Positions 16,716 through 27,229 of a stretch of 60,740 nt of DNA are shown here, one piece after another. The stretch comes from Omnitrophica bacterium GWA2_41_15 (GTDB lineage Bacteria > Omnitrophota > Gorgyraeia > Gygaellales > Profunditerraquicolaceae). The stretch is taken from the NCBI GenBank assembly GCA_919902045.1, contig CAKKSP010000041.1, forward strand, positions 1 to 60,740, written 5' to 3'. The notes under the pieces were generated by a model. It ran no database searches and was not told the DNA's origin. It saw only the letters and a program-made list of their open reading frames with translations. Both the position numbers and the translations under genes were made by a program. Positions within the stretch are counted from its first letter, which is position 1; every line of letters starts with the position of its first letter.

Positions 16716-17339
16716 ATGCGTATTTTTACTGTCTTAGGGATTGTTTTTTACGCAACAGTTTTGATACTTATTGGTATCGGCCTGATCACCCTTGCGATTA
16801 TTTTTTCTTTTGATACTACGGTTATTCAACCTGCGGATCTGGCAAACTCTCTTAATTATTTTCATACGAGTTTAAGCAGCCGTTTGATTTTAGGGCTTTC
16901 CGGGCTTCTCTTGATTTTAATTAGTTTTTCTTTTGCTCAATTGATCCTCGGCCGTTTTCAGAGAGAGAAAACTATTGCATTTAATACCCCGTCAGGGCCG
17001 GTTATGGTTGCTTTGACCGCTGTAGAAGATCTTATCCGGCGTTTAACCAACCTTCTTCCTGAAATAAAAGAACTGCGGCCGGATGTAAGGGCAACTAAGA
17101 AGGGAATTGAAGTAGATTTGCGTGTAGTTTTACGTTCCGAAGCTAATATCCCGGAGATCACTAGTAGATTACAGGAAATAACTAAATCTAAAATCCAGGA
17201 TGTTTTGGGTGTTGAGGGAGAAGTTTTAATTAATATCCATATCGTAAAGATCGTTACTACTGAAGAAAAGGATAAAAATAAGAAAACGCCGGATAAAGAA
17301 GAAACGGTTTTGCCGTTCGGCGGGTATACGAGAGTTTAA
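16716..17339 (+). CDS. Alkaline-shock membrane anchor AmaP-like protein
   Basis: Two TM helices then an Asp23-like domain (IPEITSRLQE); adjacent to the Asp23 gene. Confidence 0.75.
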   Translation: MRIFTVLGIVFYATVLILIGIGLITLAIIFSFDTTVIQPADLANSLNYFHTSLSSRLILGLSGLLLILISFSFAQLILGRFQREKTIAFNTPSGPVMVALTAVEDLIRRLTNLLPEIKELRPDVRATKKGIEVDLRVVLRSEANIPEITSRLQEITKSKIQDVLGVEGEVLINIHIVKIVTTEEKDKNKKTPDKEETVLPFGGYTRV

Positions 17340-17359
17340 ATTAAAAGGGAGAATAAAAA

Positions 17360-18400
17360 ATGTCAGAAGCAAAAAAAATTGGATTATTAACTGGTGGAGG
17401 GGATTGTCCGGGTTTAAATCCGGTAATTCGCGCGGTAGTACGTAAAGGTATAAATTCCGGATTTGAAATTATCGGTTTTAAAAATGGCTGGAAAGGCCTG
17501 ATTGAGGGGAATGCCTCAGCTTTAAATTTTGAAAGTATCGCCGGAATACTCCCTAAGGGAGGAACGATTCTAGGTACAAGCCGCACCAATCCTTACAAGA
17601 AAGAAGGCGGATTAGAAAGCGTAAAGGCAAATTTTAAAAAATTTGATTTGCATGCCCTTATTGCCGTTGGTGGTGAAGATACATTAGGGGTAGCTTCAAA
17701 GCTGATAAAAGACGGGATTACTAATGTTGTTGGTGTGCCTAAAACTATTGATAATGATCTTTCTTGCACTGATTATACTTTTGGCTTTGATACTACGATT
17801 AATATTGCTATGGAATGTATTGATCGTTTGCATACCACAGCCGAGAGCCATAATCGTATAATGGTAGTTGAAGTTATGGGCCGTCATGCCGGATGGATCG
17901 CGGTTGAGGCAGGTTTAGCTGGCGGAGCGGATGTGATCCTTATTCCGGAAGTTCCCATTGATATAGACGAAGTATGTGCTTTAATAAATCGCCGTCATAG
18001 TAGAGGTAAGACTTTTAGTATCGTAGTAGTTGCCGAAGGAGCTGAATTTAAAAAAGGAATGATGGTTACTCGGGAAGAAAAGCTTGATGAATTCGGGCAT
18101 GTGCGTTTAGGCGGAATCGGCGAAATCTTAGGTAAAGAAATTGAAAAGAGAACCGGGTATGAAACGCGGGTGAGTGTTTTGGGCCATATTCAGCGTGGAG
18201 GATCTCCTTCGGCATTTGACCGGGTGTTAGGGATTCGTTTCGGAGTAAAAGCAGTAGAATTAGTTATAGCTAAAAAGTTCGGGCGCATGGTTGCGCTTGC
18301 CGGAAATAAAATCGTAGACGTGTCTTTGGAAGATGCCGTTAAAGCTTTAAAAACTGTAGATATGGAACTTTATGGTATTGCCAAAGAATTCTTCGGGTAA
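17360..18400 (+). CDS. pfkA: 6-phosphofructokinase, probably PPi-dependent or mixed-substrate group III
   Basis: TGGGDCPGLN, GGEDT, PKTIDND, EVMGR, LGHIQRGG. Confidence 0.93.
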   Translation: MSEAKKIGLLTGGGDCPGLNPVIRAVVRKGINSGFEIIGFKNGWKGLIEGNASALNFESIAGILPKGGTILGTSRTNPYKKEGGLESVKANFKKFDLHALIAVGGEDTLGVASKLIKDGITNVVGVPKTIDNDLSCTDYTFGFDTTINIAMECIDRLHTTAESHNRIMVVEVMGRHAGWIAVEAGLAGGADVILIPEVPIDIDEVCALINRRHSRGKTFSIVVVAEGAEFKKGMMVTREEKLDEFGHVRLGGIGEILGKEIEKRTGYETRVSVLGHIQRGGSPSAFDRVLGIRFGVKAVELVIAKKFGRMVALAGNKIVDVSLEDAVKALKTVDMELYGIAKEFFG

Positions 18401-18405
18401 ATCAT

Positions 18406-18975
18406 ATGCGTGAACGAGTAAAAGAAATAATTCTTGAGAGCATTCAGGTAAAAGAAGAGCTTCTGCGCAATAAAGGTGTGGATGTAATATTAGATATTAC
18501 CAATATGGCTATAGACTGCCTTAAAAAAGGCGGCAAGTTAATTGTTTTTGGTAATGGAGGGTCTGCAAGTGATAGCCAGCATATTGTGGCTGAACTTGTC
18601 GGCCGTTTTAAAAAAGAGCGCCCGGCATTACCTGCGATTGCGCTTACTACCAACAGTTCAATAATTACAGCGCTTGCAAACGATTATTCATATGAGATTG
18701 TTTTTTCCCGTCAGGTTGAAGCTTTAGGGCAGAAAAATGATCTAGTTTTAGGTATTTCAACCAGCGGAAAAGCAAAAAATGTGGTTAGTGCTTTTAAGCA
18801 GGCAAAAAAAATGGGGATTAAAACCGTGCTTTTTACCGGCGGTGACGGTGGCGAGGCTGCTAAAACCGCTGACCTGGTGTTTACTGCTCCGTCAACTATT
18901 ACAGCGCGTATCCAGGAAACACATATTACAGTCGCACATATTATATGCGAGCTCATCGAAGAAGCCTTTGTTTAG
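18406..18975 (+). CDS. gmhA: Phosphoheptose isomerase
   Basis: GNGGSASDSQH, ANDY, STSG, IQETH. Confidence 0.95.
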   Translation: MRERVKEIILESIQVKEELLRNKGVDVILDITNMAIDCLKKGGKLIVFGNGGSASDSQHIVAELVGRFKKERPALPAIALTTNSSIITALANDYSYEIVFSRQVEALGQKNDLVLGISTSGKAKNVVSAFKQAKKMGIKTVLFTGGDGGEAAKTADLVFTAPSTITARIQETHITVAHIICELIEEAFV

Positions 18976-19454
18976 ATAAAAAGATAAAAACGTCTGTTGT
19001 TTTACTTTCTATTTTAAGAAAATTGCGCGTAGAAGGTAAAAAGATAGTTTTTACTAACGGATGTTTTGATATCCTGCATTACGGCCATGTAAAATATCTT
19101 CAGGATGCCCGTAATAAAGGAGACATTTTGATTGTGGGCTTAAATCGCGATATATCAGTACGCCGGATTAAAGGTAAAGATAGGCCGATTAATAATGAAT
19201 TAGACCGGGCAGGAGTGTTAGCGGGGCTTGAAAGCGTAGATTTTATAGTTTTTTTCTCAGAAGATAATCCCCTCAAGCTTATCCGTTTGCTTAAGCCCGA
19301 CTTGTTAATAAAAGGCGCTGATTGGAAAGATAAAGAAATTATCGGCGCAAATGAAGTTTATGGATACGGAGGAAAAGTAGAAACTATTCCTCTTGCTTAC
19401 GGCCGATCTACCTCAAACCTGATTAAAAAAATTGTCCGCTTATACAAAAGATAA
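18945..19454 (+). CDS. rfaE2: D-glycero-beta-D-manno-heptose 1-phosphate adenylyltransferase (RfaE domain II)
   Basis: VFTNGCFDILHYGH, KGKDRP, KGADW, STS. Confidence 0.93.
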   Translation: MRAHRRSLCLDKKIKTSVVLLSILRKLRVEGKKIVFTNGCFDILHYGHVKYLQDARNKGDILIVGLNRDISVRRIKGKDRPINNELDRAGVLAGLESVDFIVFFSEDNPLKLIRLLKPDLLIKGADWKDKEIIGANEVYGYGGKVETIPLAYGRSTSNLIKKIVRLYKR

Positions 19455-19875
19455 GGCTATTTTGCGCATTATTGATGCAAATGCCAACCGCTTAAAAGAA
19501 GGTTTGCGCGTTTGCGAAGAAGTAATGCGTTTTTTTCTTGGTAACCAAAAGCTTACAGGCCAGCTAAAACGCATGCGTCATGAGGTAGATAGCACGGTTA
19601 TTTTATTAGCTAATGAAAATTTACGTTTAAAAGCAAGAGATAGCGTAAAAGATTTGGGCCGCAGTCAAGCTGAAACGGAATTTTTACGCAAGGATATCAA
19701 TGATATTTTTTTTGCTAATTTAAGCCGCGCCAAGGAGTCTCTTAGGGTTCTTGAAGAATTTAGTAAGTTGGATAAATCCAGCGCTTCTATAAAATTCAAA
19801 CAATTACGTTATACTGCTTATGAGATTGAAAAACAGGCAACTATTCTACTCAGGCCTTTACGTCATTCTAGATAA
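19432..19875 (+). CDS. ThiD2-like helical domain (stand-alone N-terminal part of extended ThiE)
   Basis: RIIDANANRLKEGLRVCEE and ANLSRAKESLRVLEEFSK repeats; directly upstream of thiE. Confidence 0.8.
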   Translation: MSAYTKDKAILRIIDANANRLKEGLRVCEEVMRFFLGNQKLTGQLKRMRHEVDSTVILLANENLRLKARDSVKDLGRSQAETEFLRKDINDIFFANLSRAKESLRVLEEFSKLDKSSASIKFKQLRYTAYEIEKQATILLRPLRHSR

Positions 19876-20452
19876 GGGCATACTCGGGACTTTTGAAAAT
19901 ATCATCAGGGTTTTAAGGCTTATTAAGAAAGTAAAACCCGGGATTATCCAATACCGCAACAAAGACGGCTTGCCTTATGATATGTTAAAAGATTGCCTTT
20001 TAATAAAACGCCTTGCCCATGCACAAAAAGCGTTTTTTATCGTGAATGATTATCCTGAAATTGCCGTAATAACCGATGCTGATGGTCTGCATCTTGGACA
20101 AGATGATATTTCGATTAGTGTTGCGCGAAAGATTCTTTCTCCGGATAAGCTGATCGGTAAATCTTGCCATAGCTTAAAGCAAGCGCTATCTGCGCAAAAA
20201 GAAGGCGCAGATTATCTTGGTATAGGCCCTATTTTTTCTACTCCTACTAAGCCTGAATATCAACCGGTCGGTTTAGGTTTAATTAATAAAGTTAAAGAAA
20301 AAATTAACCTACCTATTTTTGCAATCGGGGGAATTAATGCGGATAATGTAAAATTAGTTATGGATGCCGGCGCGACAGGCGTGGCAGTATGCCGGGCTTC
20401 CTATCAAAATACAACTTTAAAAAAACTCAGCCAGGTTTTAGGGAAAGGATAA
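19820..20452 (+). CDS. thiE: Thiamine-phosphate synthase
   Basis: QYRNK, IVND, DGLHLGQDD, GPIFSTPTK, AIGGI. Confidence 0.94.
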   Translation: MRLKNRQLFYSGLYVILDKGILGTFENIIRVLRLIKKVKPGIIQYRNKDGLPYDMLKDCLLIKRLAHAQKAFFIVNDYPEIAVITDADGLHLGQDDISISVARKILSPDKLIGKSCHSLKQALSAQKEGADYLGIGPIFSTPTKPEYQPVGLGLINKVKEKINLPIFAIGGINADNVKLVMDAGATGVAVCRASYQNTTLKKLSQVLGKG

Positions 20453-21700
20453 ATGATTAATAAGATAGCAAAAGAAGAGATAAAAAAAGGTACTGTGGTG
20501 GTGCTTTGTAACCGTAAGCATAAACTTAAGAAGCCTTGTGCTGTAGGTAGCGGCCTAAGGACTAAAGTTAATGCCAATATCGGTACTTCAGCAGAAAAAA
20601 TAAGTATTAAAGATGAGCTTAAAAAATTGGATGCTGCCCAAAAAGCCGGAGCAGACGCGGTAATGGATTTAAGTACCGGGGGAGATATAGTCAAGGTGCG
20701 GCAGGAGATTATAAGCCATTCCACTGTTCCTGTAGGGACCGTGCCAATATATGAGATAGCAATTAATGCTAAAAAAAGAAGTAGAAATAAGGATTTCCTT
20801 TCTTTTACTGCTGAAGATATCTTTGAGGTTCTGGAGCGGCAGGCCAGAGAAGGGGTTGATTTTTTTACCATTCATGCCGGAGTTACCCGAAAGAGTATTT
20901 TGGCGTTAAAAAAGCATCCGCGGTTGATGGGGATAGTCTCGCGCGGAGGGGCAATTTTAGCGAGTTGGATGTTGCGCAATAAGAAAGAGAATCCATTTTA
21001 CGAGTATTTCGATAAAGTTTTGCATATTGCCAAAGATTATGATATAACTATAAGCTTGGGAGATGGTTTAAGGCCTGGCGCAATTGCAGATTCTACGGAT
21101 AAACCACAGCTCACGGAGTTAAAGATCCTTGGAGAGCTTGTAGATCAGGCGCGTAAAGCAGGTGTCCAGGTGATGGTTGAAGGGCCTGGGCATATTCCGC
21201 TTCCTCAGATTGAAAAAAACATTGCTCTTGAGAAAAAATGGTGTAAGGGCGCGCCTTTTTATGTGCTTGGGCCGCTGGTAACGGATATTGCCTCTGGTTA
21301 TGACCATATCAGTTGCGCAATCGGTGGAGCATTGGCAGCCTGGAAAGGGGCAGATTTCTTATGCTATGTTACAGCTTCTGAACATCTGCGGCTTCCTGAT
21401 TATAAAGATGTCTACGAAGGGGTAATTGCTTGCCGGATTGCTGCTCATGCCGCGGATATTGCTAAAAATGTACCCGGGGCAAGGCAGTGGGATAATAAAA
21501 TGTCGCATGCCAGGCGATTGCGTGATTGGAAAACTCAAATAAGCTTAAGCATAGATCCGGAAAAAGCAGCCCGGTATCATGGGCTTAAACACGCAAAAGC
21601 AGGAGATATCTGTACGATGTGCGGGGAGTTCTGTTCTATAAAAATCAACGAAGAATGTTTTGCAGGTAGCCAACAGGCAGTTCCTGCAATGCGGGTGTAA
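20453..21700 (+). CDS. thiC: Phosphomethylpyrimidine synthase
   Basis: TKVNANIGTS, MDLSTGG, LGDGLRPG, EGPGH, CTMCGEFC. Confidence 0.96.
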   Translation: MINKIAKEEIKKGTVVVLCNRKHKLKKPCAVGSGLRTKVNANIGTSAEKISIKDELKKLDAAQKAGADAVMDLSTGGDIVKVRQEIISHSTVPVGTVPIYEIAINAKKRSRNKDFLSFTAEDIFEVLERQAREGVDFFTIHAGVTRKSILALKKHPRLMGIVSRGGAILASWMLRNKKENPFYEYFDKVLHIAKDYDITISLGDGLRPGAIADSTDKPQLTELKILGELVDQARKAGVQVMVEGPGHIPLPQIEKNIALEKKWCKGAPFYVLGPLVTDIASGYDHISCAIGGALAAWKGADFLCYVTASEHLRLPDYKDVYEGVIACRIAAHAADIAKNVPGARQWDNKMSHARRLRDWKTQISLSIDPEKAARYHGLKHAKAGDICTMCGEFCSIKINEECFAGSQQAVPAMRV

Positions 21701-21795
21701 TTTTCCGCCGTATAATTAAATACAAGGCGGAATCCCGACGCAGGAAAAAAGAAGAGGCGACGGGACAATGGTAGAATGGCAGCCTTTTGTGTTCT

Positions 21796-21866
21796 GCGAG
21801 AGTAGTTCAGTGGCAGAACACCAGCTTCCCAAGCTGGATATGGGGGTTCGATTCCCCTCTCTCGCT
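21796..21866 (+). tRNA. tRNA-Gly (anticodon CCC), CCA not encoded
   Basis: Acceptor GCGAGAG/CTCTCGC, D-arm GTTC-AGTGGCA-GAAC, anticodon arm CCAGC-TTCCCAA-GCTGG, T-arm GGGGG-TTCGATT-CCCCT. Confidence 0.93.
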
Positions 21867-22508
21867 TTAGCTATTTGTTTATTTATTTTAGCGGGTTGCG
21901 CGACAGTACCCAAAACAGCGTCATTACCTAAACCGCCTAGCGGTTTGAATGGTTTTTATCATAGAGTAGAAAAGGGCCAGACCCTTTGGGGAATATCTAA
22001 ACAATATAATATTGATTTAGATCAGTTAGTAGAGATAAATCGTATTACTGATAAGACTGCGCTTGAAGTAGGGCAGATGGTTTTTATATCATCTGTATTG
22101 CAGGAAGAAGTTAAGAAAATTAATCTAAACCTTATAAAGGCAGAAGATAATTTTATTTGGCCGTTAAAGGGGAGGCAATTAGGTAATTTTGGAGAAGTAA
22201 TTAACGGCCGGGTTAATAAAGGGATCAATATTGTTTCATCCGGAGCAAACACAATTGTATTTGCTGCAAGAAGCGGAAAAGTAGTTTTTTGCGCTCCAAG
22301 TTTTAAGAGTTACGGTTCTACGGTAATAATTGATCATGGCGATGGTTTTTTGACTGTTTATGCGTTTAAAGCGGAATTGCTTGTTAAAGCAGGAGACTCT
22401 GTTTTGCAGGGTGCTTCTATTGCAAGGTTAGCGGGTCAAAGACAACTATATTTTGAACTCCGTAAAGGGCATATTCCGCAGAATCCAACTTTTTTTCTGC
22501 CGCGGTAA
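21840..22508 (+). CDS. LysM + M23 peptidase-like lipoprotein (NlpD-like); start codon inside the tRNA gene
   Basis: Signal MGVRFPSLALAICLFILAG-C, LysM HRVEKGQTLWGISKQY, FIWPLKG, NKGINI, YFELR. Confidence 0.85.
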   Translation: MGVRFPSLALAICLFILAGCATVPKTASLPKPPSGLNGFYHRVEKGQTLWGISKQYNIDLDQLVEINRITDKTALEVGQMVFISSVLQEEVKKINLNLIKAEDNFIWPLKGRQLGNFGEVINGRVNKGINIVSSGANTIVFAARSGKVVFCAPSFKSYGSTVIIDHGDGFLTVYAFKAELLVKAGDSVLQGASIARLAGQRQLYFELRKGHIPQNPTFFLPR

Positions 22509-22513
22509 ACATT

Positions 22514-24106
22514 ATGGTAAAAGAGATATTCTTAGGCCGAAGCCTTCAGCGCGAGCTTATTGAAAAACGAATTATTGATTTAAAAAACGGTTATCGTCAG
22601 AATATCGCGATTATCGGCGATGAGCTGGTTGGTAAAACTTCGCTTATTTTTAATTTTATCCGCAACTTCTCCGATCCTCATATTTTACCCCTCTATCTTG
22701 AAGTTAGGCCCGAGCCGTTTAAAGATTTTAAGCGCCGCTTTATGGGCGTGCTTTTATATGCATTCTTAGATAACAGCAGTATAAGCCTCCAGGAAAATCT
22801 TGATTTTCTTATTGAAAAATCCCGTAATTTTATACCTAAAACCGCCGATAAAATAACCGACTTATTAAGAAATCCTGTTAGTAAGAAGAAAGCGGATAAT
22901 TTTTTTGAGCTGCTTGAAGTCTGCGACCTGATTTATCAGGAAAGTGGAAAGCGCTGTGTTGTCATCTGGGATGAATTCCACAATCTTGAATATATGGGTA
23001 TTAAAACTTTATACGCCGAATGGTCAAAGGCCCTTATTACCCATAAAAATACGATGTTTATCATCACCAGTTCCCTGCCATCTAAAGCAAAAAAGATTCT
23101 TGCGCATAACCTGTCGCTTTTATTCGGGAATTTTCAGTCGATCAGCTTAGAACCTTTTGATGTGCATACCAGCGAGGTGTATTTAGATATTAAATTTGAA
23201 GGTAATCATTTAGATAAGGGCCTGCGGAACTTTTTAGTACATTTTAGCGGAGGTTATCCATTTTATCTTAATCTGTTAAGCGAAGGGATGTTAAAGCATG
23301 AAAAAATGCCGCTTACGCAGGTACTTGTTGAGTTGTTGTTTAGTTCAACGGGAATTTTAAATCAGCGTTTTAATAATTATTTAAAACGTTTGGTTTCTTT
23401 GCCAAATAGCCAGGATTATTTGTCGCTCTTGTACTCTATTGCCAGCGGCCATAATCGCCTTAAAGATATTATGCACATAAGCCATAAAACCGCAAAAGAG
23501 ATAAACGTCCGGCTTAATTATTTATTGGAACTGGATGTAGTTACAAGAAGCGGTGATTTTTTTAAGATTAACGACCGTCTTTTTGGTTTTTGGCTAAAGT
23601 TTGTTTATCAAAAAAAGGCAAATGCCCTGACCTTTGATGCTAAAAATCAAAAACAGCATTTTACGTCTTATCTCGATGTTGTGATTAAAGAATTTATAGT
23701 GTCTTCTGCTAAGCCGATACCCGAGAGAATGATTGAACTTTTAAGGCTTTTTGAAGACGATATAATTCAAGTTGAAGAAAAGAAATTCAGGCTAAACCAT
23801 TTTAGGGAATTAAAACAGCTTGAGTTTAATAGCCGGGGATTAGGGGAAGGTGTGTTAGGCCGTTCCGAAGATAGCGTCTGGATCATGGCTTTTAAAAATA
23901 AGAAATTAACAGAAGAAGATGTTACAGAGTTTGCTAGGGAATGCAAAAAATACCGTAATAAACTTCAGCAGAAAATCATTATTTCTCTTGATGAGATAGA
24001 TATTAATGCCAGGTTGCGGGCTTTAGATGAAAAAATTTTAACTTGGGGATTAAGCCAGGTAAATGAACTAATGGATTTATACGCAAAGCCAAGGATAGTT
24101 ACATGA
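22514..24106 (+). CDS. Archaeal-ATPase-like P-loop protein with winged helix and C-terminal alpha/beta domain
   Basis: FLGR..., Walker A GDELVGKT, Walker B VIWDEFH, SGGYPFYL, DRLFGFW. Confidence 0.75.
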   Translation: MVKEIFLGRSLQRELIEKRIIDLKNGYRQNIAIIGDELVGKTSLIFNFIRNFSDPHILPLYLEVRPEPFKDFKRRFMGVLLYAFLDNSSISLQENLDFLIEKSRNFIPKTADKITDLLRNPVSKKKADNFFELLEVCDLIYQESGKRCVVIWDEFHNLEYMGIKTLYAEWSKALITHKNTMFIITSSLPSKAKKILAHNLSLLFGNFQSISLEPFDVHTSEVYLDIKFEGNHLDKGLRNFLVHFSGGYPFYLNLLSEGMLKHEKMPLTQVLVELLFSSTGILNQRFNNYLKRLVSLPNSQDYLSLLYSIASGHNRLKDIMHISHKTAKEINVRLNYLLELDVVTRSGDFFKINDRLFGFWLKFVYQKKANALTFDAKNQKQHFTSYLDVVIKEFIVSSAKPIPERMIELLRLFEDDIIQVEEKKFRLNHFRELKQLEFNSRGLGEGVLGRSEDSVWIMAFKNKKLTEEDVTEFARECKKYRNKLQQKIIISLDEIDINARLRALDEKILTWGLSQVNELMDLYAKPRIVT

Positions 24107-24591
24107 AAATCGGGGTAATATCTGATACGCATATTCCGGAACGCGCTGCAGGGATCCCGGATGAAATTTTATATGCCTTTAAAAAAGTTGATATGATCAT
24201 TCATGCAGGAGATTTGGTTGAGGTAGGCGTGCTTGATCAGCTTAAAGCGGTATGTCCTAATTTAAAGGCTGTCTGCGGCAATATGGATCCCGAGGATATA
24301 CGTAAGATCTTACCGGAAAAAGAAATTATAAAAGTCGGCAAATTCCGTATCGGCGTAATGCACGGCCAGGGGCATCCGGATAGGTTAATTCTTGCGGCAG
24401 AAAAATTATTTAAACAAGATAAAGTAGATATGGTTATTTTTGGGCATTCGCATTTGCCGGTCAATGAAGAAAGAAACGGGGTAATTTATTTTAATCCCGG
24501 CAGCCCAACAGATACGATTTTTGCTCCGTATAAATCGTACGGAATTATTGAGATTAATGATAAGATTGAAGCTAAGATTGTAAAGTTATGA
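24103..24591 (+). CDS. YfcE/MJ0936 metallophosphoesterase
   Basis: SDTH, HAGD, GNMD, FGHSH, NPGS. Confidence 0.93.
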   Translation: MKIGVISDTHIPERAAGIPDEILYAFKKVDMIIHAGDLVEVGVLDQLKAVCPNLKAVCGNMDPEDIRKILPEKEIIKVGKFRIGVMHGQGHPDRLILAAEKLFKQDKVDMVIFGHSHLPVNEERNGVIYFNPGSPTDTIFAPYKSYGIIEINDKIEAKIVKL

Positions 24592-25076
24592 ACCAGCTTT
24601 GGGCGCCCTGGAGGACAAAATATATCCAAGCTAAAACTAAACCGAAAGGATGTATTTTTTGCATTGCCGCGTGTAATAAAAAATCCAGTGATTCGTTAAT
24701 TTTTACAACCGCGCATTCACTTGTTATATTGAATAAGTTCCCTTATAATAATGGCCATCTGATGGTTTCGCCACTTCGCCATACAAGCGATATCGCTAGT
24801 TTAACTCAAGAAGAAATTACGGATCTTTGGAAAGCATTAAAATCAGCCAAAAGGATTCTAGATAAACTATTAAAACCGCAGGGTTATAATATCGGGATTA
24901 ATTTAGGAGATGTTGCAGGCGCCGGGATAACAGGGCATCTGCATATTCATATTGTGCCGCGATGGAAAGGCGATACAAATTTTATGCCGGTTTTAGCGGC
25001 AAATAAAGTGATTTCGCAATCACTTGAAGATTTAAAGAAAAAATTAAGATATGCTTACGCAAAATCAAATTCATAA
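24588..25076 (+). CDS. HIT family hydrolase (Fhit/Ap4A type)
   Basis: LWAPWR, CIFC, PYNNGH, HLHIHIVPRW. Confidence 0.93.
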   Translation: MNQLWAPWRTKYIQAKTKPKGCIFCIAACNKKSSDSLIFTTAHSLVILNKFPYNNGHLMVSPLRHTSDIASLTQEEITDLWKALKSAKRILDKLLKPQGYNIGINLGDVAGAGITGHLHIHIVPRWKGDTNFMPVLAANKVISQSLEDLKKKLRYAYAKSNS

Positions 25077-26205
25077 ATTTGAGGAAAAATTTCTGGCTTC
25101 GTATGCAATGAAAAGCCAGGATACCGCAGGCAGGGCTCATAAAGAAGAAGAGCATCCGTATCGATCGGTGTATCAGCGCGACCGTGACCGGATAATCCAT
25201 AGTGCGGCATTTAGAAGGCTTGAATATAAGACCCAGGTTTTTGTAAATCACGAGGGAGATTATTACCGCACCCGGCTTACGCATACTCTCGAAGTTGCGC
25301 AAATTGCGCGTACTGTCGCAGCCGCCCTACGTTTAAATATTGATTTAACAGAGGCAGTATCTTTGGCGCATGACCTTGGCCATACGCCTTTTGGCCATGC
25401 CGGAGAAGATGCGCTTGATGAATTAATGCGCTCTGAAGGAGGGTTTAACCATAATCTCCAGGGATTAAGGGTGGTAGATTTGCTTGAAGAGCGATACCCG
25501 AACTTTCCGGGTTTAAATTTGAGTTGGGAGGTGCGGGAGGGGATAGTCAAACATTCTTCTGAGTTTGACCAGGCAGTAGTTCTTAAAAGTTTTAAGCCCG
25601 ATCAGATGCCGACGCTTGAGACCCAGCTTGTGGATATTGCCGATGAAATTGCTTATGATAATCATGACTTAGATGACGGTATCACATCCGGGTTATTAAA
25701 AGAAGAAGACTTGGCGCGGCTTCCTATCTGGGAAAAGTTGATTAAAAGGCTCAAAGCCAATTATTCATCTCTTGACCAGGAGAGAAAAAAATACCTGATT
25801 ATCCGCTCTTTGATCGATATGCAAGTTACGGATCTAATACAACACACGGAAAAAATTATCAGTTCTGCCAAGATAGATTCATCACTTAAGGTGCGTAAAC
25901 TAGGAAAAAAAATTATAAGTTTTAGTGAAGAAATGAAGGCATTGCGCCTGCCTCTAAGAGAATATCTTAAAGAAAAGCTTTACCGGCATTATCGCGTAGT
26001 CAGGATGAGCTATAAAGCCAAGAGGTTTATCAAAGAGCTTTTTGAAGTATATATAAAAATACCCAATGCGCTTCCGGCGCATGTGCAAAAGCGCATTCCA
26101 CAGGATGGAGTACGCCGGGCAGTATGTGATTATATTGCCGGAATGACAGATAGGTACGCCTTAGATGAATACAAAAAGTTATTTGACCCCTACGAAAAAG
26201 TATAA
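25051..26205 (+). CDS. dgt: Deoxyguanosinetriphosphate triphosphohydrolase
   Basis: RDRDRIIHS, RTRLTHTLEV, HDLGHTPFGH, DYIAGMTD. Confidence 0.95.
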   Translation: MLTQNQIHKFEEKFLASYAMKSQDTAGRAHKEEEHPYRSVYQRDRDRIIHSAAFRRLEYKTQVFVNHEGDYYRTRLTHTLEVAQIARTVAAALRLNIDLTEAVSLAHDLGHTPFGHAGEDALDELMRSEGGFNHNLQGLRVVDLLEERYPNFPGLNLSWEVREGIVKHSSEFDQAVVLKSFKPDQMPTLETQLVDIADEIAYDNHDLDDGITSGLLKEEDLARLPIWEKLIKRLKANYSSLDQERKKYLIIRSLIDMQVTDLIQHTEKIISSAKIDSSLKVRKLGKKIISFSEEMKALRLPLREYLKEKLYRHYRVVRMSYKAKRFIKELFEVYIKIPNALPAHVQKRIPQDGVRRAVCDYIAGMTDRYALDEYKKLFDPYEKV

Positions 26206-27229
26206 AACGCTAGTTTCTGCGATACATAGTGTATATCGCCTGGTGAGCTCTACTTTTGAGTTGAAAGATTTAATTTCGCGTTTAAGCAGGCTGATGAATC
26301 AGGTCTTTGATGCGCAGTATTGCCAGATTATCCTGCTTGATCCCAGTAAAAAATATTCGATATTACGTTGCGTAACAAGCTCCCGTAAAAAATATCTCTC
26401 CGATAAAAAATTGAAATTACAAGGCAACCTTGAAAAAAGGATCGTGCAGAGGATTTCCGCGACGCGCAAAGATTATCTTATCGGAGTGCCGCTTGTTTGC
26501 GAAGATATTATTGGTTTAATTATATTAAAACGATTATCCGGTAAATTACCTTTTGACCGTTTTGACCAGGAGATAATAATGACCATGGTTGAACAGGTGA
26601 TTATCGGGATTAAAAATTTACAGCTTTATGAAGAACAAGGGCGCATTGTTTTAGGCAGCATTAAGTCGTTAGTCAAACTTCTTGATACTCGCGTTCCTCA
26701 GGAATATACACATTCTCCGTATTTTAGCCGTCTTGTAGTAAGTATCGCCCAGCAGATGCGGTTAGACGAAAAACAGGTTGAAAGTATTAAATACGCAAGC
26801 CTGCTTCATGATGCCGGAAAAATTGATATACCTATGGAGATTCTTACTAAGACTACGAAGCTTACGGCAAAGGAGTATACGATCATTAAGCGGCATCCTT
26901 TAAAAAGTGCGCAGATCTTGCAGCCCTTACTGATCCTTAAACCGGCAATTCCGATTATTATGTATCATCATGAAAAATACGACGGAACCGGCTATCCTTC
27001 AAGATTAAAGAAACGCCAGATTCCTCTCGGTGCCAGGATAATGGCAGTAGCCGATGCTTTTGAAGCCATGGTTTATGGCAGGCCATACCGAGAGCGCAAA
27101 GATATAGCTTCCGCAGTAAAAGAAATTCGTAAGAAAAGCGGCAGCCAATTTGATCCTAAGGTTGTAGAAGCCTTCCTTAAAATTTCCAAAAAGATCAATG
27201 CAAAAAATTACTTGAAAGTTTCAGAATAA
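26165..27229 (+). CDS. GAF + HD-GYP c-di-GMP phosphodiesterase-like protein
   Basis: LHDAGK, HHEKYDGTGYP, AVADAFEAM, QFDP. Confidence 0.88.
   Translation: MNTKSYLTPTKKYKTLVSAIHSVYRLVSSTFELKDLISRLSRLMNQVFDAQYCQIILLDPSKKYSILRCVTSSRKKYLSDKKLKLQGNLEKRIVQRISATRKDYLIGVPLVCEDIIGLIILKRLSGKLPFDRFDQEIIMTMVEQVIIGIKNLQLYEEQGRIVLGSIKSLVKLLDTRVPQEYTHSPYFSRLVVSIAQQMRLDEKQVESIKYASLLHDAGKIDIPMEILTKTTKLTAKEYTIIKRHPLKSAQILQPLLILKPAIPIIMYHHEKYDGTGYPSRLKKRQIPLGARIMAVADAFEAMVYGRPYRERKDIASAVKEIRKKSGSQFDPKVVEAFLKISKKINAKNYLKVSE

Follow-up and report, generated by a model that had tools for sequence, protein, structure and literature searches.

Can a bacterial tRNA gene that still works also encode the start of a protein? 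To our knowledge, bacterial annotation generally assumes that protein genes and tRNA genes share no nucleotides on one strand. In the window, that is, the whole stretch of 60,740 nucleotides analysed here (contig C41), a tRNA-Gly(CCC) gene is followed immediately by the hydrophobic core of a lipoprotein signal peptide. A preliminary description of the locus proposed that the protein must start either within the tRNA or upstream of it, reading through all of it. The questions are whether both genes are functional, whether relatives have the same overlap, which start codon is used, and what the arrangement would mean for the RNA that carries both genes.

The locus and its genomic setting

The assembly containing the window is 82% complete, with a length of 1.14 Mb and a G+C content of 40%, and belongs to an uncultured member of Candidatus Omnitrophota. 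According to their labels, the sequencing runs that contain the stretch are groundwater and aquifer metagenomes. Positions 21600-22100 are covered without differences by a 9-kb contig of run X2, which is a possible source, and positions 21732-21999 are covered, again without differences, by a 268-nt contig of run X9, which comes from a separate study. The junction between the tRNA and the open reading frame (ORF) is therefore not an assembly artefact.

The tRNA-Gly(CCC) gene sits within an operon-like array, directly after thiC (Table 1). All ORFs of 100 residues or more between 16716 and 27229 are on the plus strand, except for two minus-strand ORFs nested in plus-strand ones, and the gaps between the plus-strand ORFs are a few bases long or are replaced by small overlaps. 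Upstream of thiC no TPP riboswitch was found, nor did 17000-21000 yield a match to any other Rfam family, and a scan for promoters and terminators gave no promoter-like site between thiC and the tRNA. The sequence TGGTAGAAT (21769-21777) was considered as an extended -10 box and rejected, being the D arm of a fossil tRNA half (see below), although it may still act as a promoter.

Table 1. Coordinates of the features discussed in the text, as positions in the window.
Feature	Position	Strand	Evidence or remarks
thiC (phosphomethylpyrimidine synthase)	20453..21700	+	Pfam ThiC_Rad_SAM, 603 bits; conserved in relatives just upstream of the tRNA
Fossil of tRNA positions 1-12	21691..21702	+	Last two thiC codons and thiC stop (21698-21700)
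Insertion of 63 nt, splitting the fossil tRNA half	21703..21765	+	Two predicted hairpins, ViennaRNA MFE -23.4 kcal/mol
Fossil of tRNA positions 13-30 (D arm, 5' strand of anticodon stem)	21766..21783	+	Contains ATG 21768
ORF of LysM and degenerate M23 (dLytM) lipoprotein	21768..22508	+	Pfam; open through the tRNA
Candidate start 1 (favoured), ATG	21768..21770	+	28 nt 5' of the tRNA; lipobox Cys after 43 codons
tRNA-Gly(CCC), 71 nt, no encoded CCA	21796-21866	+	ARAGORN; Rfam RF00005
Candidate start 2, GTG	21810..21812	+	tRNA positions 15-17 (D loop); 29 codons before the Cys
Candidate start 3 (choice of the preliminary description), ATG	21840..21842	+	Where the variable loop meets the T stem; 19 codons before the Cys
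Hydrophobic core of signal peptide and lipobox L-A-G-C (predicted)	21867..21899	+	Cys codon 21897-21899; Cys conserved in orthologs

The tRNA gene

ARAGORN identifies a single tRNA in the window, Gly(ccc), and the same gene scores 71 bits with Rfam RF00005 (gathering score 29), matching model positions 1-71 of 71 without truncation. The preliminary description had called an intact tRNA-Gly(CCC) at this position, and this is borne out: the score is that of a canonical tRNA and not of a pseudogene. It is the only tRNA with a CCC anticodon among the 26 in the 82%-complete assembly. A pattern made from the 9 nt of the anticodon loop gave as many matches as its reversed control, and the search for further copies therefore used BLAST with the whole tRNA. 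No second close copy was found by this method in this genome or in four other genomes with an overlap; the next-best matches in the five are 73-83% identical, and the one in G000 is a tRNA-Gly(UCC) called by ARAGORN. The tRNA-Gly(CCC) gene has no encoded CCA, and the same is true of 20 of the 25 tRNA genes examined in the assembly.

It could be argued that this is not a working tRNA at all, and that a tRNA-like sequence has been kept only as coding sequence or as RNA structure. The sequence does lie within an ORF, and the assembly also has a tRNA-Gly(UCC), which could read GGG by wobble. Such a reading is hard to reconcile with the full-length match at 71 bits, with tRNA scores that are much the same at loci with the overlap (62-75 bits) as at loci without it (67-73 bits), or with the finding that the CCC tRNA is the sole copy both here and in the four other overlap genomes (completeness 93-97% in three of them). 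We consider it most unlikely.

RNase P RNA is present in 27 of the 31 genomes searched. It was not found in this assembly, which we attribute to the assembly being only 82% complete. The equivalog model for RNase Z matched nothing in G000, and gave nothing above the cut-off in the 31 genomes.

The lipoprotein

Pfam identifies two domains in the ORF, a LysM domain (46.4 bits, approximately 21960-22088) and a Peptidase_M23 domain (63.5 bits, approximately 22212-22487). Active M23 enzymes have H and D plus HxH as active-site motifs. In the alignment, the corresponding positions of the protein are degenerate, and fall in the stretches NKGINI and QLYFE: N and N replace H and D, and Q..Y replaces HxH. 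The closest solved chains, found with phmmer against the PDB, are an unnamed M23 peptidase (8tzk) followed by DipM and EnvC, the last two being murein hydrolase activators. As judged from its sequence, the protein is a LytM factor (dLytM), having a degenerate M23 fold together with LysM, as in NlpD and DipM. The preliminary description had called it NlpD-like, and the two domains, with DipM and EnvC among the best solved matches, agree with this.

The lipobox motif is defined as [LVI][ASTVI][GAS]C. In the predicted protein LALAICLFI precedes L-A-G-C, which thus appears to be a lipobox following a hydrophobic core, and a lipobox after a hydrophobic core is also found in more than 100 orthologs. 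In its combination of LysM, M23 and a predicted lipoprotein signal the protein resembles NlpD, DipM and EnvC; we know of no member of that group with a signal peptide encoded in a tRNA gene.

The presence of a tRNA-Gly beside an M23 protein also raised the idea that the tRNA serves in the synthesis of cell-wall cross-bridges. This was dropped because no match to the FemAB family was found in the 82%-complete genome.

Absence of a start codon after the tRNA

The ten in-frame codons between the end of the tRNA and the lipobox Cys (21867-21896) are TTA GCT ATT TGT TTA TTT ATT TTA GCG GGT. A codon by codon check confirms the earlier statement that none of them is ATG, GTG or TTG. With no canonical start after the tRNA, the start must be ATG 21768, GTG 21810 or ATG 21840. 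The preliminary description was therefore right that the protein starts within the tRNA or at 21768, where the ATG is in frame and reads through the tRNA, but it did not contain the third in-frame candidate, GTG 21810 in the D loop. It had also placed ATG 21840 correctly: the A and T are in the variable loop, the G is the first base of the T stem, and the frame from there reads MGVRFPSLALAICLFILAGC. The overlap amounts to 27 nt or more, and may extend over 99 nt (21768-21866). Whichever of the starts is used, the ORF very probably overlaps a working tRNA.

The three candidates would give rather different signal peptides. In orthologs the signal peptide has a median length of 22 residues (5th-95th percentile 17-39), and the shortest are about 16-17. 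A short positive N-terminal region is found or not according to the start: from 21840 the peptide begins MGVR and has one positive charge, while from 21768 the N-terminal region is 28 residues long and, by residue count, net negative, having four acidic residues (three Glu, one Asp) and two basic ones (one Lys, one Arg).

A non-canonical start after the tRNA would avoid the overlap, and there are in-frame ATT codons at 21873 and 21885. From these, no more than 8 residues would precede the Cys and a charged N-terminal region would be lacking, whereas even the shortest signal peptides of orthologs have about 16-17 residues. The chance that either is used appears to be very small.

Distribution of the overlap in relatives

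Orthologs of the lipoprotein were found in all 61 genomes searched. Thirty orthologous loci were fetched, and in 28 of them a tRNA-Gly(CCC) lies directly upstream on the same strand, the other two being cut by contig ends. Further loci were added from metagenomes (80), from species-representative genomes (80) and from a phylum-wide tRNA pattern (34). After merging of identical sequences there are 125 distinct arrangements in which tRNA-Gly(CCC) is followed by the gene for the LysM lipoprotein.

In 115 of the 125, the gene is provided with a start codon of its own (ATG, GTG or TTG) downstream of the tRNA. The gap from the tRNA to this start has a median of 18 nt; 52 of the 115 gaps do not exceed 15 nt, and 72 do not exceed 30 nt. 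Where the gap is short, it is A/T-rich and in most cases has no Shine-Dalgarno motif. Such gaps are too short for a separate promoter, from which we infer that tRNA and gene are normally transcribed together.

The remaining 10 rows have no usable start after the tRNA, and to these can be added, by hand, L198 and the contig-cut L032. The preliminary description had suggested looking for the overlap in relatives, and it is thus present there, in a minority of loci. In family f1, the overlap is found in G000, in the G026 group (L002, L037 and L111, which are one sequence, with L031), in L032 and in L061, and the T arm and acceptor strand are read in the same frame as in the window. L194, L195, L196 and L198, of family f11 in the same class, also use the same frame as the window, with ACG at the tRNA position that corresponds to ATG 21840. 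L105 has the frame of the window and lacks the variable-loop ATG. In L082 and L109 the variable loop is one base longer, and the T arm is consequently read in another frame. Four further loci (L076, L089, L096 and L097) were rejected as overlap loci on the basis of stops or starts of their own after the tRNA. L153, which is ambiguous in having an ATG after the tRNA and a non-lipoprotein signal, and L201, which is cut by a contig end, were left out of the counts.

The overlap loci therefore fall into at least two deep clades and two T-arm reading frames. A tree of 124 orthologous proteins is poorly resolved, with five changes of overlap state, and its well-supported branches allow a single origin. 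For the f1 overlap group alone, a single clade is not rejected, and fits better than the free search (AU p 0.877). From the difference in frames and the existence of the f11 group, the number of independent origins would be at least two or three, and on these grounds it seems that the overlap arose, and was kept, more than once. The loss of the start after the tRNA recurs in relatives, and the overlap is thus beyond chance.

A further possibility to consider is that the lipoprotein gene is dead in this genome, having recently lost its start, and that only the tRNA works. This would account for the absence of a canonical start after the tRNA. However, the ORF is full length, both its domains score well, and the hydrophobic core and lipobox are intact. 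The architecture also persists at a divergence from the window's gene at which synonymous sites are saturated (pS 0.78-0.89). In the sister group, dN/dS is 0.075 at a dS of 1.28 between the overlap species L002 and L032, the proteins of which are 82% identical. The low dN/dS and the saturated synonymous sites indicate that the overlap is old and that the gene has been under purifying selection while overlapped, and a dead gene is hardly to be expected here. Across the phylum, the comparison of sequences shows the overlap to be a recurrent and selected feature.

These distributions suggest how the arrangement could have come about. The ancestral Omnitrophota layout would have been thiC, tRNA-Gly(CCC) and the lipoprotein gene in that order, with an ATG of the lipoprotein's own approximately 5-20 nt after the tRNA. 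The present lineage would then have lost this start together with the charged N-terminal region of the signal peptide, leaving the hydrophobic core and lipobox to abut the 3' end of the tRNA.

The 5' end of the tRNA and fossil tRNA pieces

The tRNA is also shared at its other end. Of 116 distinct related loci, 94 have a ThiC C-terminal motif immediately upstream of the tRNA, and in 33 of these 94 the thiC stop codon is inside the tRNA, at tRNA positions 8-10 in 30 cases and at positions 19-21 in 3.

In the window, thiC ends within the first of two fossil tRNA pieces. Six relatives have a living tRNA-Gly(CCC) whose first 30 nt agree with the two pieces taken together (21691-21702 and 21766-21783) at 30 of 30 positions, whereas the window's own tRNA agrees with them at only 22 of 30. 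In the predicted fold of the insertion between them, the loop of the second hairpin would carry a purine run with GAGG at 21754-21757. Similar fossils are found in many relatives: 5' halves (positions 1-33) approximately 100-170 nt upstream of the tRNA, and 3' pieces (positions 51-71 or 37-71) between the tRNA and the region encoding the lipoprotein signal peptide, 75-186 nt downstream of the tRNA. The fossils are probably overlaps that have been resolved by partial duplication or insertion, in which case each flanking gene would keep the piece of tRNA on which its dependence had grown.

Choice of start codon

The reading that we favour, with a confidence that falls a little short of an even chance, is that translation starts at ATG 21768 and reads through all 71 nt of the tRNA. 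The GAGG at 21754-21757 is 14 nt upstream of this ATG, and falls within the zone (-16 to -9) at which Shine-Dalgarno-like motifs peak approximately five-fold in this genome. An in-frame ATG no more than 45 nt upstream of the tRNA, with no intervening stop, is found in 7 of the 10 overlap rows and in 16 of 111 others, and an ATG at exactly -16 before the tRNA is found in 5 of the 10 and in 1 of 115, as well as in L198; these counts come from related sequences with perhaps only two or three origins, and overstate the independence of the observations. The leaders around the -16 ATGs have diverged and the ATG itself has been kept. Several of these ATGs lie close to the stop of the upstream gene: in L002 the thiC stop (TGA, at -15) begins one nt after the ATG begins, in L061 the thiC stop is at -26, and in L195, L196 and L198 a stop codon overlaps or closely precedes the ATG. 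Translational coupling requires a start that overlaps the upstream stop or lies within a few nt of it, and in the window the thiC stop is 67 nt before ATG 21768. L194 has 50 codons between the tRNA and the Cys that contain neither a stop nor a canonical start, a stretch that is difficult to account for if ribosomes do not come in from the side of the tRNA.

Several observations tell against ATG 21768. It would give a signal peptide of 43 residues, longer than the 95th percentile (39) of orthologs and far from their median, and the net-negative N-terminal region would be unusual for an export signal. It is the D-loop ATG of the fossil tRNA half, and could be a by-product of this. The counterpart of the -16 ATG of L061 is out of frame in the window, at -20. 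In addition, stop codons just before the tRNA in L082 and L105 force these two to start within it, and not every overlap locus can thus rely on an upstream start.

ATG 21840 is a possible but less likely start. It would give a signal peptide of 19 residues with an Arg in the N-terminal region, which is the best fit to the ortholog distribution, and in the three f1 overlap lineages that carry the variable-loop ATG the Cys follows it by 17-20 codons. The tRNA would have to be unfolded, or not yet folded, for this ATG to be used, as it is buried in the folded tRNA, and there is no purine-rich, Shine-Dalgarno-like motif upstream of it. Moreover, an ATG of this type is a generic feature of the tRNA, being present in 64 of 115 non-overlap rows as against 4 of 10 overlap rows, and the f11 overlap lineages have ACG in its place. 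A start here also leaves the enrichment of upstream in-frame ATGs unexplained. The preference for ATG 21840 in the title of the preliminary description is consequently not supported.

A start at GTG 21810 is improbable in the window. The sole candidate start common to all 10 overlap rows is nevertheless the one at tRNA positions 15-17, an in-frame ATG or GTG, and a TCG variant at these positions, found in 37 of 115 other rows, is found in none of the 10. In L082 there is an ATG at tRNA position 15, preceded by GAGGG and a 7-nt spacer, and upstream starts are excluded in L082 and L105. The purine-rich 5' strand of the acceptor stem would act as a weak ribosome-binding site, used co-transcriptionally before the 3' strand has been made. 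On the other hand, the window has a GTG here, preceded by no more than GAGAG, the tRNA dictates the D-loop sequence regardless of where translation starts, and the missing TCG variant may reflect shared ancestry. For the window, then, ATG 21768 is placed first and ATG 21840 a possible second, GTG 21810 is improbable, and so are all remaining readings taken together.

A model for the shared RNA

On this basis the 5' end of the lipoprotein gene and tRNA-Gly(CCC) share the same DNA on the same strand, very probably with both remaining functional. Initiation at ATG 21768 would be served by the GAGG in the hairpin loop, with the start clear of the tRNA fold. The 43-residue signal peptide would be cleaved off by signal peptidase II, and the mature protein would for this reason be unchanged.

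A transcript would then have one of two fates. Either it is translated, with ribosomes holding the tRNA unfolded, or RNase P and 3' processing would cut out the tRNA and sever the start from the rest of the ORF. Excision of the tRNA removes the start codon or the first 9-33 codons, and translation requires ribosomes to melt part or all of the cloverleaf, so that one transcript cannot yield both products. That tRNA maturation and translation are mutually exclusive for each transcript is thus a logical consequence, rather than an observation, and it holds for every candidate start. The idea that the arrangement is regulatory is speculation.

Comparison with known systems and significance

The thrU-tyrU-glyT-thrT-tufB operon of E. 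coli is a bacterial tRNA-mRNA co-transcript. As at the present locus, its tRNAs and protein gene are on the same strand with no room for a separate promoter, and the mRNA is presumably released from, or translated on, a precursor that contains tRNA. The tRNAs and coding sequence of the tufB operon are however separate, whereas here the coding sequence crosses part or all of the tRNA, and in many Omnitrophota relatives the upstream gene ends inside the tRNA as well.

The other close parallel is the tRNA punctuation of mitochondria, a compact polycistronic layout with tRNAs flush with, or overlapping, protein genes. There too the genes concerned share a strand, and maturation of one product cuts the other short. 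The differences are that the host here belongs to a bacterial phylum of free-living type, with genomes of 1-2 Mb, and that the shared stretch is 27 nt or more in length, up to possibly the whole tRNA, and affects the start region instead of a few terminal bases. We know of no repair by polyadenylation for an overlap of the bacterial kind.

In plants, dicistronic tRNA-mRNA transcripts combine a tRNA with the protein-coding gene next to it in one unit, with a proposed role in RNA mobility, according to the available part of PMC13293983; as described there, they differ in being eukaryotic and in that the genes do not share nucleotides. The literature searched, available in part and mostly mitochondrial or eukaryotic, contained no bacterial precedent for an overlap between a tRNA and a protein gene, and nothing on Omnitrophota, which is not proof of absence. 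We class the case with the known phenomena of same-strand gene overlap and tRNA-mRNA co-transcription, to which it would add the encoding of an export signal by a working tRNA gene in bacteria.

The locus is a case in which an intact tRNA present as a sole copy is overlapped, under purifying selection over deep divergence, and in which this state has been reached in more than one way. It offers a natural system for the study of competition between ribosomes, RNase P and 3' processing for one RNA. It bears on the origin of overlaps by deletion of a very short spacer, and, to judge from the fossil tRNA pieces next to thiC and the lipoprotein gene, partial duplication may later resolve them. There is also a practical consequence, in that the usual assumption of annotation means that genes like that of the lipoprotein may be called short, called wrongly or dropped.

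The broadest reading, which we put forward tentatively and do not regard as probable in its entirety, is that tRNA-Gly(CCC) is a dual-use element within its operon-like array. In one lineage out of three, the 5' end of the tRNA would provide the stop codon of thiC; in two clades or more, the tRNA body or 3' half would encode a signal peptide, that of a cell-separation factor. Transcripts would be divided between message, while ribosomes are on them, and tRNA, when ribosomes leave and the RNA is folded and cut. The GGG codon at 21843-21845 lies inside the T stem of tRNA-Gly(CCC) and is read by that same tRNA, which could add feedback. If this reading is true, the supply of a tRNA, the synthesis of thiamine and the splitting of the septal wall would be tied to the translational state of the cell.

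Genetic context of the tRNA gene

The tRNA-Gly(CCC) gene lies within thirteen plus-strand ORFs in succession (counted at a minimum of 100 residues), whose neighbours are separated by a few bases or overlap slightly. The widest gap in this array is the spacer between thiC and the tRNA, at 95 nt.

Fossil tRNA sequences

The final codons of thiC, together with its stop codon, are a fossil of tRNA positions 1–12, and positions 13–30 of the same fossil come after an insertion of 63 nt that forms two hairpins. When joined, the two pieces are identical at 30/30 positions to the living tRNA in each of six relatives, but at only 22/30 to the tRNA of the window itself. The tRNA now in place is therefore no mere twin of the fossil. 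Elsewhere in the same genome assembly (G000) there are 24-nt copies, 88–92% identical, of a segment of the insertion's first hairpin (see the table).

Fossil pieces are also found at the equivalent loci of relatives. Upstream of the living tRNA, at a distance of about 50–170 nt, there are 5′ halves that end in the anticodon loop. Downstream, there are 3′ pieces, comprising positions 51–71 or 37–71, which are located 75–186 nt from the living tRNA and stand ahead of the signal-peptide region of the lipoprotein. These fossil pieces may be resolved overlaps, or integrase-type recombination at this tRNA may have left them behind.

Features of the window, of its genome (G000) and of related loci (L-numbers)
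Feature	Location or loci	Remark
Array of ORFs	window 16716-27229	
Fossil tRNA pieces at thiC end	window 21691-21783	
GGG codon after ATG 21840	window 21843-21845	lipoprotein frame
24-nt hairpin copy	G000 C2:11634-11657	~33 nt past 3′ end of tRNA-Pro, same strand
24-nt hairpin copy	G000 C19:106-129	
24-nt hairpin copy	G000 C45:2691-2714	between tRNA-Gly(UCC) and tRNA-Tyr
Upstream fossil 5′ halves	L004, L038, L042, L058, L064, L069, L075, L087, L143	
Downstream fossil 3′ pieces	L011, L069, L080, L092, L107, L114, L140	
thiC stop at tRNA positions 8-10	L020, L022, L024, L035, L078	examples
thiC stop at tRNA positions 19-21	L034, L048, L122	examples

The tRNA as coding sequence

Acceptor stems that begin with GCGAG occur in 8/10 of the loci with no usable lipoprotein start after the tRNA, versus 22/115 of those that have their own start there. 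Where the hydrophobic core begins, this stem encodes Leu in the lipoprotein frame and the common GCGGG stem encodes Pro. The excess may come from selection acting via the peptide or from common descent.

In one relative (L194, genome G111), about 37 extra in-frame codons separate the hydrophobic core from the tRNA, and the whole run of 50 codons leading from the end of the tRNA to the Cys is free of stops and of ATG, GTG and TTG. The extra codons contain inverted repeats. In the window, the GGG directly following the internal ATG is the one that tRNA-Gly(CCC) decodes, and it is formed by the T stem of that same tRNA.

Processing of the tRNA ends

In G000 and 30 relatives, CCA is not encoded in most tRNA genes; in G000 this holds for 20 of 25 examined. 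Yet among these 31 genomes no protein reached the cut-off of the RNase Z equivalog model; its matches were all weak ones of about 260 residues, presumably metallo-beta-lactamase-fold proteins.

At the 5′ end, the thiC frame enters the tRNA and stops there on TAG or TAA in 33 of the 94 distinct related loci that have thiC upstream. Cleavage by RNase P would therefore strip the thiC mRNA of these 33 loci of its stop codon.
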